Shown here one piece after another: positions 3,760-6,802 of a DNA stretch of 6,802 bases. A model generated the notes under the pieces. The model was not told where the DNA came from, made no database searches, and worked only from the letters and a program-made list of their open reading frames with translations. The stretch comes from a virus (lineage: Duplodnaviria > Heunggongvirae > Uroviricota > Caudoviricetes), in the IMG/VR virus record IMGVR_UViG_2563366874_000009. The stretch is one strand, 5' to 3'. Both the position numbers and the translations under genes were made by a program. The number at the start of each line of letters is the position of its first letter. Positions within the stretch are counted from its first letter, which is position 1.

Positions 3760-3904
3760 ACATTGCTTTTTTATTGATCGATTAACCACGATATGAAGGT
3801 TTTTTTATGGGGAAACCTTGTTTTAGGTGGTAACTGGGTGTAGTGTTTCATTTAACGTAGTAAAACTGCGTTAAGCGATTACCGCGTAATTTGTTGCTTT
3901 ATGA
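3760..3904 (+). promoter_or_regulatory. Structured leader upstream of the lysis cassette (candidate late promoter / antitermination region)
   Basis: Hairpin AAGGTTT..AAACCTT (3796..3819) and imperfect inverted repeat TTAACGTAG..CTGCGTTAA; several weak -35/-10 candidates (e.g. TTGAAC at 3756) but none convincing. Confidence 0.3.
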
Positions 3905-3936
3905 AGCCCTGCCTTTTTCGGCGGGGCTTTTTTTTT
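3905..3936 (+). terminator. Rho-independent terminator directly upstream of the holin RBS (tR'-like position)
   Basis: 9 bp stem AGCCCTGCC / GGCGGGGCT with one G-U wobble, 6 nt loop, followed by a 9-T run; orientation-specific for the + strand. Confidence 0.6.
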
Positions 3937-3949
3937 AACGAGGATTTCA

Positions 3950-4345
3950 ATGTCAGCAGAACCAATTTCCGGTACGGCCGTTGCTGCTGGTGGCCTGATG
4001 GGGGCCAGCGTTTTTGGTATTGCAACTGGTATTGATTACGGCGTTGTATTCGGGGCATTTGCTGGCGCTGTTTTCTATGTTGCTACAGCGGTGAATATTA
4101 GCCGTCTCAAGCTGATTGGCTATTTCTTTACATCGTTCATTGTTGGAGTGATTGGAGCGCCGTTAGTTGGCTCATTTCTTGCCAAATGGACCAGCTACAA
4201 CGATCGTCCTCTTGATGCACTTGGTGCGGTTATTGTGGCTGCATTGACAATTAAAATCCTCACGTTCGTAAACAGCCAGGATCTCGGTAGCATCTTTGGA
4301 ATGCTTTCCCGCTTACGTGGAGGGGGTTCAAATGGTAAGCAGTGA
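3950..4345 (+). CDS. Putative holin (multi-pass membrane protein)
   Basis: GAGGA SD before ATG 3950; three to four hydrophobic helices rich in Gly/Ala; charged C-terminus; sits immediately upstream of the endolysin. Confidence 0.6.
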   Translation: MSAEPISGTAVAAGGLMGASVFGIATGIDYGVVFGAFAGAVFYVATAVNISRLKLIGYFFTSFIVGVIGAPLVGSFLAKWTSYNDRPLDALGAVIVAALTIKILTFVNSQDLGSIFGMLSRLRGGGSNGKQ

Positions 4346-4628
4346 CCCGTCAGCACTGATTAATGCGGTGCTTTGCACAGTAATAGTAATGGCGCTGATG
4401 CTTTATCGACGGAAAGACTCCAGGCATCGTCCATTTGTTTCCTTTCTGGCTTATATCTACGTCATTGTATACGCCAATGTTCCCTTCCGTTATGTGTTCG
4501 GTCTTTATCAAGAATCCCACTGGCTGGTGGTTATTGGAAATCTGATTACCTGCATCGTTGTTCTGTATTTCAGGGGCAATCTGGCGCGAATAGTTGACGC
4601 ATTAGGGTTTAATCATGACCAAAGATGA
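4332..4628 (+). CDS. Second lysis-cassette membrane protein (holin or antiholin-like, about 3 TM segments)
   Basis: In frame with track ORF 4296..4628; GGAGGGGG SD 5-7 nt upstream of ATG 4332; overlaps holin 3' end and endolysin start. Confidence 0.45.
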   Translation: MVSSDPSALINAVLCTVIVMALMLYRRKDSRHRPFVSFLAYIYVIVYANVPFRYVFGLYQESHWLVVIGNLITCIVVLYFRGNLARIVDALGFNHDQR

Positions 4629-5157
4629 GATTTTTAACAGCGTTCTTGGAAAAGAGGGCGGCTATGTGGATCACCCTGACGACAAGGGAGGCCCAACAAA
4701 GTGGGGCATTACTCAGAACACTGCCCGTGCTCATGGATACCGTGGCGATATGCGCGATTTAACCCGCGAACAGGCACTGGAAATCCTTGAGGCTGATTAC
4801 TGGTACGGACCACGCTTTGATCAGGTGGCCGCATTATCCTCTGATATTGCCGCAGAGCTGTGTGATACCGGTGTGAATATGGGGCCAACAGTGGCGTCCA
4901 AAATGCTTCAACGCTGGCTGAATGTGTTCAATCTGCGTGGGAAGCTGTATCCCGATTTGGATGCAGATGGACGAATCGGTCCACGTACCATTAATGCGCT
5001 GCGTGCTTATCTTGGGAATCGGGGAAAAGACGGCGAACGGGTGATGCTGACGTCGCTGAACTGTACGCAGGGCGAACGCTATCTGGAGCTGGCGGAGAAG
5101 CGCGAGGCGAATGAGTCGTTTGTCTACGGCTGGATGAAAGAGCGAGTGGTGGTATGA
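4615..5157 (+). CDS. Endolysin, glycoside hydrolase family 108 N-domain with peptidoglycan-binding C-domain
   Basis: N-terminal LGKEGGYVDHPDDKGGPTKWGIT is the GH108 signature region as I recall it; stop overlaps i-spanin start (ATGA at 5154). Confidence 0.8.
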   Translation: MTKDEIFNSVLGKEGGYVDHPDDKGGPTKWGITQNTARAHGYRGDMRDLTREQALEILEADYWYGPRFDQVAALSSDIAAELCDTGVNMGPTVASKMLQRWLNVFNLRGKLYPDLDADGRIGPRTINALRAYLGNRGKDGERVMLTSLNCTQGERYLELAEKREANESFVYGWMKERVVV

Positions 5158-5432
5158 CTGGTTTGAAGGCCGTTTTGTCATTTATTGGCACAATTATATT
5201 GGTTGCATTCGGCGCGTTTGGTTTTGGTCGTATGAAGGGGCGAGAAAAGGCCGAAGATGAAGCTGAAAAGCAGCGCATAAATGAGAATGCAGCCGCCGTA
5301 AAAGCCACTGCGGAGCGGCGTATAGAAGTGACAAAAGAGGTGGGCAATGTACAGCAGAGTGTTAACCATATGGCTGATGACGATGTTGATCGCGAGCTGC
5401 GGGAGTCGTGGAAGCGTCCCGGTGGTGGTTGA
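5154..5432 (+). CDS. i-spanin (Rz-like; N-terminal TM helix then charged periplasmic helical region)
   Basis: Hydrophobic segment LKAVLSFIGTIILVAFGAFGF followed by Glu/Lys/Ala-rich sequence; position after endolysin; o-spanin starts inside it in another frame. Confidence 0.6.
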   Translation: MTGLKAVLSFIGTIILVAFGAFGFGRMKGREKAEDEAEKQRINENAAAVKATAERRIEVTKEVGNVQQSVNHMADDDVDRELRESWKRPGGG

Positions 5433-5556
5433 TACTGCCTGTGATTGGGTAAAGCCCATCTACCTGACTGATCACGATATCGATGTTATGGACCGCCAGA
5501 CAAAGAAAGATATTCTGGCTCATAACAGGGCATGGGAAATCAACTGCCCCAAGTAA
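5347..5556 (+). CDS. o-spanin (Rz1-like outer-membrane lipoprotein), overlapped architecture
   Basis: AGAGGTGGG SD before ATG 5347; signal peptide MYSRVLTIWLMTMLIASC with lipobox IAS-C; starts within the i-spanin gene and extends past it. Confidence 0.6.
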   Translation: MYSRVLTIWLMTMLIASCGSRGSVPVVVDTACDWVKPIYLTDHDIDVMDRQTKKDILAHNRAWEINCPK

Positions 5557-5590
5557 TATATATTTCTATAATTATATAAATATATAGTTA
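5557..5590. repeat. AT-rich junction motif, copy C (inverted relative to copy B)
   Basis: TTATATAAATATATA matches the reverse complement of the copy B core (about 17/21); begins directly after the o-spanin stop. Confidence 0.6.
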
Positions 5591-5646
5591 CAACATTCTA
5601 TGCGCTTTTCTCATGGGCGCACGCATCAACCATGTTTGTCTGATAT

Positions 5647-5700
5647 GCCGCCGCGCCCAAAAATCCTGAATTTATTGGCTGGGATTTTCGTGCGCGGCGC
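5647..5700. other. Long interrupted inverted repeat 26 bp upstream of the tRNA
   Basis: Outer 8 bp GC stem (5649..5656 with 5692..5699) plus inner 7 bp stem AAAATCC/GGATTTT (5660..5666 with 5682..5688) around a 15 nt loop; no T-run follows. Confidence 0.4.
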
Positions 5701-5725
5701 CACACCAGACAAACAGATCAAATAT

Positions 5726-5801
5726 GGCCCCTTAGCTCAGTGGTTAGAGCAGGCGACTCATAATCGCACGGTCATCGGTTCAAATCCGGTAGGGGCCACC
5801 A
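5726..5801 (+). tRNA. tRNA with CAU anticodon; closest by memory to enterobacterial tRNA-Ile2 (lysidine-modified, reads AUA), phage-borne variant
   Basis: Cloverleaf read by hand: 7 bp acceptor stem GGCCCCT/AGGGGCC, D-arm GCTC-AGTGGTTA-GAGC, anticodon loop CTCATAA (CAT at 5759..5761), T-loop TTCAAAT, 3' ACCA. The 5' half matches my recollection of E. coli ileX; T-arm differs. Confidence 0.85.
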
Positions 5802-6010
5802 ATTCACTCTCACACATAAAGATAAGCGCGGTGGAGTTACTTCCTTCGTGCTCATCTTTATGCGTGCCTGGTGCGCATTTCGGGCGAACGTGGGGCTAAG
5901 TTACAGGCAGGGCCTGTTATCCGCAAAGGGGTAAAAGCTGGAGCGGCACGGAACTGTAGCCGTGTTACCAAAACAGCGTTGTCGGGCGATATCCGGCACA
6001 CAACAGGCAA

Positions 6011-6041
6011 GGGCATTAATCAGTCTGGTTAGTGCCCTTTT
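6011..6041 (+). terminator. Hairpin terminator downstream of the tRNA region
   Basis: 9 bp stem GGGCATTAA / TTAGTGCCC (one G-U), 9 nt loop, then TTTT; T-run is short so strength is moderate. Confidence 0.4.
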
Positions 6042-6109
6042 CGTTGCGTCTGCTGTAGAGCTGGCCAGCGTTATGACTGCCGGAGATAAGCGCCGGAGGC
6101 ACAACTAAC

Positions 6110-6697
6110 ATGGAGGCAATTGCATTGTTTAATCTGATTTATGCAGATCCCCCCTGGGAATACAAAGATAAGTGTAAGGATGGGAATCGTGGAGCTGGTT
6201 TTAAGTATCCAACGATGAAAGCTGAGGATATTGCTCGTATTCCTGTCTGGCAGCTTGCTAATCCTGAATCGTGTTTGTTGGCCATGTGGTGGGTTCCGAC
6301 TCAGCCAGAAGAAGCGTTGCTGGTGGTGAAAGCATGGGGATTCAGGCTTATGACCATGAAGGGCTTCACATGGAACAAATGTGGTAGCCGACAACCAGAT
6401 AAGCTGGTGATGGGGATGGGGCATATGACTCGTGCAAACAGTGAAGATTGCTTGTTTGCGGTAAAAGGCAAATTGCCGACCCGCCTTGATGCGGGGATCA
6501 TTCAGTCGTTTACATCGCCTCGTCTGGAGCATTCTCGGAAGCCTGATGTGGTTCGTGACAAGCTGGTAAGGCTGTTAGGTGATGTTCCTCGTATTGAGCT
6601 GTTTGCTCGCGGTGATTTACCTGATGGTTGGCATGGCTGGGGCAACCAGTGCAATGGAGGTATCCAGTTGCATGATGCTCTCTGGCAAGTGGCATAG
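6110..6697 (+). CDS. DNA N6-adenine methyltransferase, MT-A70-like family (orphan, no cognate nuclease seen)
   Basis: Catalytic DPPW motif (LIYADPPWEY) near the N-terminus followed by MT-A70-like conserved blocks; GGAGG SD about 9-10 nt upstream; stop TAG 6695..6697 abuts motif A. Confidence 0.75.
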   Translation: MEAIALFNLIYADPPWEYKDKCKDGNRGAGFKYPTMKAEDIARIPVWQLANPESCLLAMWWVPTQPEEALLVVKAWGFRLMTMKGFTWNKCGSRQPDKLVMGMGHMTRANSEDCLFAVKGKLPTRLDAGIIQSFTSPRLEHSRKPDVVRDKLVRLLGDVPRIELFARGDLPDGWHGWGNQCNGGIQLHDALWQVA

Positions 6698-6730
6698 AAT
6701 TATATAATTATAGATTTATATAAAAAGTGC
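6694..6730. repeat. AT-rich junction motif, copy A (ATAGAATTATATA-ATTATAGA-TTTATATAAA); also present at 1..30 through the terminal repeat
   Basis: Begins within the methyltransferase stop codon; shares 13-mer and 10-mer with copy B. Confidence 0.7.
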
Positions 6731-6802
6731 TTTACAGGTGGGAAAAAATTTCCTATGGTTATACCCGAAACCGAGCGATACCCGCCCTGGTTAAACCGGA
6801 GA
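6701..6802. repeat. Terminal direct repeat, copy 2 (identical to 1..102)
   Basis: Exact identity with 1..102 by direct reading. Confidence 0.9.

Follow-up and report, generated by a model that had tools for sequence, protein, structure and literature searches.

The window analysed in this work, a stretch of 6,802 nt from a virus of the Caudoviricetes, is 100% identical over the studied region to NZ_CP032259.1, a circular 49.9-kb (49,921 bp) E. coli plasmid, and shares 97–98% identity overall, and ~99% across the hairpin-tRNA region described below, with the Yersinia pestis phages vB_YpM_39, 41 and 44. The replicon is a myovirus-type phage-plasmid, with RepA, ParA, an XRE-type repressor, a toxin-antitoxin pair and an IS21 transposase in the RefSeq annotation, in which no integrase is annotated over the complete 49.9 kb. 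A single strand encodes nearly all of its genes (early region, lysis, terminase, head and tail), and a one-strand block starting at ~30.7 kb covers the lysis, tRNA, terminase, head and tail regions. This phage-plasmid family is common in clinical E. coli, infects Y. pestis and is carried by the reference strain ATCC 25922, where the copy is plasmid NZ_CP009073.1 with the region at ~31.3–31.9 kb. The part of the window considered here contains the following features.

3950–4628: two holins.
4615–5157: GH108 endolysin.
5154–5432: Rz.
5347–5556: Rz1.
Between Rz1 and the MT-A70 methyltransferase gene: untranslated gap of 555 nt, with the only tRNA of the replicon.
5555–5600, no strand assigned: AT-rich element immediately past the Rz1 stop codon, with repeats at an 8-bp period, TCTATAATTATATAA among them.
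5601–5621, plus strand: small 7-bp stem-loop from the predicted fold, UGCGCUU / GGGCGCA, with a 7-nt loop.
5633–5715, no strand assigned: hairpin 1 at its full extent, 83 nt, three helices, 34-nt arms.
5633–5642 / 5706–5715: outer helix of hairpin 1, 10 bp, perfect.
5643–5648 / 5700–5705: interrupted segment of hairpin 1.
5649–5656 / 5692–5699: middle GC helix of hairpin 1, 8 bp.
5660–5666 / 5682–5688: inner AT helix of hairpin 1, 7 bp, plus the pair C5658-G5690.
5667–5681: loop of hairpin 1, 15 nt.
5647–5700: middle and inner helices with the loop, the part first reported, making up the inner two-thirds of hairpin 1.
5716–5725, plus strand: unpaired 10-nt leader GAUCAAAUAU, from the base of hairpin 1 to the tRNA 5′ end.
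5726–5801, plus strand: tRNA with a CAU anticodon and encoded CCA (ARAGORN; Rfam tRNA, 67 bits).
5802–5810, plus strand: 9-nt trailer AUUCACUCU.
5811–5866, no strand assigned: hairpin 2, 25-nt arms that are 80% complementary, 6-nt spacer.
6110–6697: MT-A70 methyltransferase.

The tRNA was called tRNA-Met by ARAGORN and tRNA-Ile (lysidine-type Ile2) by RefSeq; it is full length and 89.7% identical to the chromosomal tRNA-Ile genes of E. coli. Its leader, in which position 5716 is polymorphic (G in 19 and A in 13 sequences), is A-rich (A at positions −4 to −6) and ends in a U at −1, a combination that would suit bacterial RNase P. We take the A|AUU found in the trailer right after the CCA to resemble the A/U-rich context of RNase E cleavage. 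A 99-codon ORF (5600–5899) spans hairpin 1, the tRNA and hairpin 2, matches phrog_23857 (E = 1e-41) and has 13 protein-database relatives (E ≤ 0.001); because it has no ribosome-binding site and overlaps the tRNA, phrog_23857 is probably an artefact of gene calling. The small stem-loop at 5601–5621 contains most of the spacer positions that are polymorphic (5612, 5615, 5616 and 5620), and the segment 5610–5623 of this upstream hairpin (CTCATGGGCGCACG) resembles the anticodon arm of the tRNA at 5757–5770 (CTCATAATCGCACG), with 11/14 matching positions in the window and 12/14 in the ATCC 25922 variant, a likeness that may be due to chance or may be the relic of a tRNA fragment.

The earlier note on this DNA had described a stem of 8 GC-rich and 7 AT-rich base pairs with a 15-nt loop, and this part was found as described at 5649–5699. 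The hairpin extends further, since an additional 10-bp helix encloses the reported part; likewise, the 26-nt spacing given between hairpin and tRNA is that from position 5700 to the tRNA start at 5726, whereas the true base of the hairpin is 10 nt from the tRNA 5′ end. The complete arms form 29 Watson-Crick pairs over 34 positions (85% complementarity). As plus-strand RNA, hairpin 1 folds at −40.7 kcal/mol (z = −4.4) and as minus-strand RNA at −57.0 kcal/mol (z = −6.7), with none of 200 shuffles being equally stable in either case. No local inverted repeat in the whole 49.9-kb replicon is longer, and no 90-nt window is more stable, among ~20,000 windows covering both replicon strands. For the middle and inner helices, pair probabilities were 0.9 or higher in all the sequence contexts tested; that of the outer helix was context-dependent, ranging from 0 to 0.97. 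The structure of hairpin 1 is well beyond chance. A long-range stem enclosing the tRNA, in the manner of rRNA processing stems, was predicted for the window and rejected, as this alternative pairing is lost in the ATCC 25922-type variant, in which the local hairpin 1 is kept. Elsewhere, the five most stable 90-nt folds predicted in the replicon include two at the repA start (plasmid L068, 18291–18470), one per strand, as would be expected for antisense-RNA copy-number control.

The two strands of hairpin 1 differ in stability by ~16 kcal/mol as RNA and by ~8 kcal/mol with DNA parameters (−33.7 versus −25.2 kcal/mol), in both cases in favor of the minus strand, whose RNA fold ranges from −53.5 to −57 kcal/mol and is the most stable of the replicon. 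The three fixed mismatches (A5643·C5705, A5645·C5703 and A5659·C5689) read as A·C in the plus strand but as G·U in the minus strand, and the same is true of the polymorphisms G5716A (13/32 sequences) and T5664C. All five transition-type mismatches or polymorphisms are therefore wobble pairs on the minus strand (5/5, one-sided p ~0.03), an asymmetry based on five sites only and partly offset by a possible U5667·G5681 pair on the plus strand. These observations speak for an action of hairpin 1 on the minus strand or as DNA, the options being a single-stranded DNA hairpin (for primosome or primase loading, oriT-like, or as a cruciform), a palindromic protein-binding site or a minus-strand antisense RNA, and the adjoining AT-rich repeat array and the invariance of the loop and mismatched positions described below would suit such a role. 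However, no promoter-like site reads through the hairpin on the minus strand, where the best candidate, at 6253, matched only 8/12 positions, nor does a terminator follow hairpin 1 on that strand; repA is ~20 kb distant, and this kind of action leaves unexplained why both top hairpins hug the tRNA ends. We thus regard it as unlikely, though not negligibly so.

Hairpin 2 starts 9 nt past the tRNA 3′ end, folds at −31.5 kcal/mol (z = −5.5) and is the second-longest local inverted repeat in the replicon. Its sequence does not resemble that of hairpin 1 (173 of 500 shuffles score equally well), hence the two are not a duplication, and the possibility that they are copies of one element was rejected. 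The placement of two unrelated, top-ranked hairpins at nearly equal distances around a single tRNA cannot reasonably be a coincidence. Two contigs from metagenomes or assemblies, L065 and L066, have a hairpin 2 with an inverted core: the ~38 nt enclosed by ATAAAGAT and ATCTTTAT are present as the exact reverse complement, and the outer bases are oriented as in the window. The change is a small inversion by arm-to-arm recombination, and it swaps the strand that bears the G·U pairs. Beyond hairpin 2, a Xer/dif-like site was considered and rejected, because GGTGCGCAT at 5870–5878 lacks a XerD arm and lies in a variable region. A short hypervariable patch at 5885–5901 occurs in two allelic forms (GGGCGAACGTGGGGCTAAG and GGGAAGCCGTTGGTTAGTGA) with conserved flanks, not related by simple inversion.

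Sequence variation was counted in 21 distinct haplotypes of the surrounding 2.1 kb, all from one closely related family. None of the 83 sites of hairpin 1 was variable, compared with 189/2100 in the surrounding sequence (Fisher p = 0.0006), and the invariance extends to its loop and mismatched positions; in the same haplotypes, coding regions had 6–17% variable sites and the tRNA 3/76. Only two stretches, 5617–5715 and 5949–6046, hold an 83-nt window free of variation, and the first of them is more conserved than the tRNA. In a wider set of sampled sequences, two rare variants of hairpin 1 were seen, G5655C and T5664C. Given the absence of variable sites among the 83, the sequence of hairpin 1 is under constraint and is no neutral scar. 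The second invariant stretch is non-coding and ends in a 14-bp hairpin followed by UUUU (~6011–6047), so that 5949–6047 may be a small RNA or an RNA 3′ end. Just downstream, at 6052–6107, the rydB model matches weakly (27 bits versus a threshold of 50).

The same counts bear on the idea that hairpin 1 is a neutral quasi-palindrome, the scar or hotspot of the insertion of an extra-gene module with the tRNA after the lysis cassette. Such an insertion would agree with the relatives that have an Rz 67–69% identical to that of the window, which carry different DNA past Rz1 and no tRNA, as well as with the flipped hairpin 2 of some genomes and with breakpoints at or inside the module in the short metagenome contigs L063 and L084. 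Yet hairpin 1 is significantly less variable than both its coding and non-coding neighbors, and two unrelated long hairpins symmetric about the tRNA would be hard to obtain in this way, which makes a scar very unlikely.

That the block 5617–5715 is among the two most conserved stretches in the 2.1 kb, ahead of the tRNA, also counts for a further possibility, in which ~5600–5725 would be a discrete small RNA derived from the tRNA leader, with hairpin 1 as its body and a 3′ end made by RNase P, acting in trans or as a protein decoy. The loop of hairpin 1 carries a UUGG (YUNR-like) motif that would serve such an RNA, and there is precedent in the C4 RNA of phage P1 and the CI RNA of P4, which are matured by RNase P. 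On the other hand, a search of the replicon for trans targets of the hairpin loops retrieved no complementary site with fewer than three mismatches, no promoter could be defined, and no Rfam family reached its threshold, the only matches being eukaryotic microRNA-precursor models (31–34 bits versus 70–86), which reflect a generic long hairpin. We consider a leader-derived small RNA quite unlikely by itself; taken jointly, the DNA-level, single-stranded DNA, antisense and leader-derived small RNA roles amount to a possibility that deserves consideration, though one we would not expect to prevail. The most stable fold of the replicon, the top-two conservation and the minus-strand wobbles do point to hairpin 1 being a sequence-specific element rather than a passive stem, working on the minus strand, as single-stranded DNA or as an RNase P-released leader small RNA, but on balance we think this rather improbable.

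All homologues found in phage, plasmid, E. coli, IMG/VR and metagenome searches were at least 98% identical to the window, and in the absence of any diverged homologue covariation cannot be tested. Distant-mode blastn searches of phages, plasmids and E. coli genomes returned only copies of at least 98% identity, and no diverged homologue emerged either from loci anchored on a spanin relative or from a protein search with the spurious ORF at 5600–5899. The outer-stem pattern was found in 8 IMG/VR contigs and the inner-stem pattern at 17 metagenome loci, with the same sequence and orientation throughout; the inner-stem pattern had no locus in GTDB species genomes, from which this tRNA variant is absent as well. 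In E. coli, hairpin 1 was found at 71 places in 70 of 20,395 records, mostly as one copy per plasmid, and 70 of the 71 places are plasmid-borne, on plasmids of ~31–57 kb and one 94-kb record with two copies; the single place counted as chromosomal was not among the 60 best matches, and all records listed are plasmid-sized. No further copy outside this plasmid family was detected in the E. coli genomes. The hairpin region is also present in three Yersinia phages and in 58 PLSDB plasmids, some of them from E. albertii, E. fergusonii and Klebsiella aerogenes. This distribution, with mostly one copy per plasmid and none in GTDB, led us to reject a REP-, ERIC- or MITE-like repeat. A literature search returned nothing on this region.

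Two IMG/VR contigs, L203 (81 kb) and L204 (48.6 kb), have a near-identical tRNA (1–2 differences) between unrelated flanks that fold no better than shuffles (z ~0) and thus form no significant hairpins. The tRNA itself therefore does not need the hairpins, which would rather serve its context. L203 and L204 share downstream sequence, and conservation stops exactly at the mature tRNA ends. Other tRNA-Ile2 contexts that were retrieved, mostly chromosomal-looking, have in most cases a TATAAT ~12 nt upstream; with these and the hairpin-free L203 and L204, flanking hairpins were rejected as a general trait of phage or chromosomal tRNA-Ile2 genes.

The module appears broken at different points in three short metagenome contigs. 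In L063 the sequence switches to unrelated AT-rich DNA at tRNA position 3, in L084 the DNA left of 5652 is unrelated, and in L064 the switch occurs inside the anticodon arm, to the 3′ half and flank of an E. coli chromosomal tRNA-Ile. L064 is the only hybrid junction with a chromosomal tRNA that was seen. Its interpretation as a plasmid integrated at the chromosomal tRNA-Ile was rejected, the junction being present in none of 5,426 complete genomes and the contig having 1.6x coverage, and L064 is probably an assembly chimera.

These data leave very little room for the suggestion that hairpin 1 is an attP-like attachment or recombinase site, or an element of the tRNA promoter. It had been made plausible by the frequent position of tRNA-Ile2 genes at prophage borders, and many of our pattern matches lie at viral contig ends; a hexamer pair with 8/12 matches exists as well. 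But the annotation contains no integrase, 70 of the 71 places are plasmid-borne, the hybrid junction of L064 is missing from complete genomes, and in E. coli genomes the hairpin occurs only on plasmids of this family, mostly in single copy. The tRNA is complete, and integrated copies flanked by a duplicated 3′ segment of it were not found among these places. As to the promoter, the reported TTGTCT-17-AAAAAT is indeed present at 5636–5664 and is as weak as had been stated, falling below the scan threshold, and its mirror copy on the other arm follows from the palindromic symmetry. We consider both the attachment site and the promoter element highly improbable.

In a standard scan of both strands of 5300–6300, with sigma-70 promoters defined by −35 and −10 hexamers matching at least 9/12 positions at a spacing of 16–18 bp, neither a promoter nor an intrinsic terminator was found. 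A sigma-70 promoter in hairpin 1 was thus rejected, its hexamers matching 8/12 positions in mirrored copies and its start falling inside the loop, and so was the claim that the hairpin is part of a tRNA promoter. The AT-rich element at 5555–5600, with four copies spaced 8 nt, contains a perfect TATAAT at 5567–5572, but its −35 hexamer matches only 3/6 positions. The only promoter-like sites of the window are those of a repeated cassette, TTTACA-17-TATGGT, at 31–59 and 6731–6759 (2 found versus 9.8 expected). Without a promoter of its own and inside a one-strand operon, the tRNA must therefore be cut from a long plus-strand precursor.

The earlier statement that no T-run follows the stem and that it is not a typical terminator was confirmed on both strands, where hairpin 1 is followed by GATCAAATATGG (plus) and TGGTTGATGCG (minus). 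The missing U-tract, the lack of a scan match in 5300–6300 and the 15-nt loop led us to reject a Rho-independent terminator. An attenuator or atypical terminator, ending or dampening transcription of the lysis operon before the tRNA, might still be read into a very stable, GC-containing stem located past the last lysis gene; besides the missing U-tract, it is opposed by the downstream genes on the same strand, which have no promoter of their own, and by the canonical terminator design already in use in the window, and is in our opinion most unlikely. That canonical intrinsic terminator (3903–3936) has an 11-bp stem and nine T, and lies 14 nt before the start codon of the first holin gene, ahead of the lysis genes as is lambda tR′. 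Expression of the lysis genes, the tRNA and the methyltransferase gene would thus depend on antitermination or on a late promoter of a type other than sigma-70.

The ends of the window are identical (1–101 and 6701–6801, 101/101) and represent one of three copies of a ~115-nt cassette, located at ~21.47, 33.14 and 40.10 kb in plasmid L068, whose parts are an array of AT-rich repeats, TTTACA-17-TA(T/A)GGT and, running up to a ribosome site and ATG, the conserved leader GGTTATACCCGAAACCGAGCGATACCCGCCCTGGTTAAACCGGAGA. The AT-rich motif (TCTATAA / TTATATAA; 8-bp units TCTATAAA / TTATATAA) recurs in seven intergenic places of the replicon, among them 5555–5600, 1208–1240 and 6695–6725 in the window and 28.6 and 29.3–29.4 kb in L068. 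It flanks parA on both sides with three or four tandem units precedes several gene modules and is present at the three promoter cassettes; from its sequence and placement, the array looks like a binding array of a partition protein or of a global regulator.

We tentatively propose that hairpin 1 acts in cis, as an RNA stem-loop of the plus-strand operon transcript, and aids excision of the tRNA and the stability of the flanking mRNA, a reading that we find credible while giving it less than even weight. A processing signal, one of the options listed in the earlier note, is favored by hairpins that bracket the tRNA in a one-strand operon with no local promoter or terminator. The structure, position and conservation of hairpin 1, its uniqueness in the replicon and the absence of promoter, terminator and integrase are observed here, and the enzymatic steps and the acting strand are our inference. 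A polycistronic plus-strand transcript would span the holin, endolysin and Rz/Rz1 genes of the lysis cassette, then the tRNA, and reach into the MT-A70 methyltransferase gene, with hairpins 1 and 2 bracketing the embedded tRNA-Ile2. Cleavage by RNase P at 5725/5726 and an RNase E-type cut just past the CCA would release the tRNA, leaving hairpin 1 with its 10-nt tail as the new 3′ end of the lysis mRNA and hairpin 2 at the head of the downstream RNA. At the lysis-mRNA 3′ end, hairpin 1 could block 3′-to-5′ exonucleases, provide an entry site for RNase III, or both. RNase III sites comprise about two or more turns of a largely double-stranded RNA helix, in many cases interrupted by an internal loop, and hairpin 1 is built in this way, the cleavage itself being putative; its structure and position equally fit a putative role as a 3′-terminal mRNA stabilizer. 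Both hairpins would, in addition, prevent the flanks from mispairing with the tRNA and keep the 555-nt untranslated gap structured. The invariance of the loop and of the mismatches hints at specific, sequence-dependent recognition rather than at a simple exonuclease barrier. Against the proposed cis-acting stem-loop stand the higher stability of the minus strand, the 5/5 wobble asymmetry, the hairpin-free L203 and L204 and the fact that all homologues are at least 98% identical.

Many temperate phages and phage-plasmids carry tRNAs within long operons and, to our knowledge, the release of such tRNAs without destroying the neighboring messages has hardly been studied. If the proposed processing role is true, the hairpin-tRNA-hairpin arrangement would be a compact natural punctuation cassette that couples tRNA release to stabilization of the lysis mRNA, and the module would be usable in synthetic operon design. 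Should hairpin 1 instead function on the minus strand or at the DNA level, this lineage of plasmid-phages would possess a previously undescribed cis site.

Imperfect palindromes of 60–140 nt that fold better on one strand, as does hairpin 1, are known from integron attC sites and from the subterminal hairpins of IS200/IS605 elements. The outer boxes of hairpin 1, GTTTGTC...GACAAAC, are in the reverse of the attC order RYYYAAC...GTTRRRY, and the replicon has no integron integrase or TnpA. We rejected an attC site, because the ends TGTTTGTCTG ... CAGACAAACA match only partially and in the wrong box order and IntI is lacking; the unrelatedness of hairpins 1 and 2 is a further difference from these palindromes. 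The ileZ-argN-argO cluster of Stx and other lambdoid phages likewise includes a CAU Ile2-type tRNA in a temperate enterobacterial phage with late transcription, but is located upstream of stx and the lysis genes, unlike the tRNA described here, and a homologous flanking hairpin was not found for it in the phage collection.

Closer to the proposed function are the E. coli secG-leuU and tufB operon co-transcripts, in which RNase P and RNase E cut the tRNA from an mRNA-containing precursor, and the REP-type 3′ stabilizer of malE-malF, a stable stem-loop that shields upstream mRNA from exonucleases at a new 3′ end. The hairpins in these systems are short terminators or multi-copy REP sequences, whereas hairpin 1 is much longer, belongs to one plasmid family and has a second hairpin beyond the tRNA as its counterpart. 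The R sites cleaved by RNase III in T7 and the sib and N leader hairpins of lambda are, like hairpin 1, long, irregular and mismatched stem-loops between transcript units, whose cleaved remnant stabilizes the upstream message or, in sib, destabilizes it. Hairpin 1 has no sequence or Rfam relation to them, is longer (~34 stacked positions and a 15-nt loop) and abuts a tRNA, its cleavage being putative. It is most appropriately grouped, as a new case, with the stem-loops punctuating polycistronic transcripts of phages, coupled in this case to an embedded tRNA.
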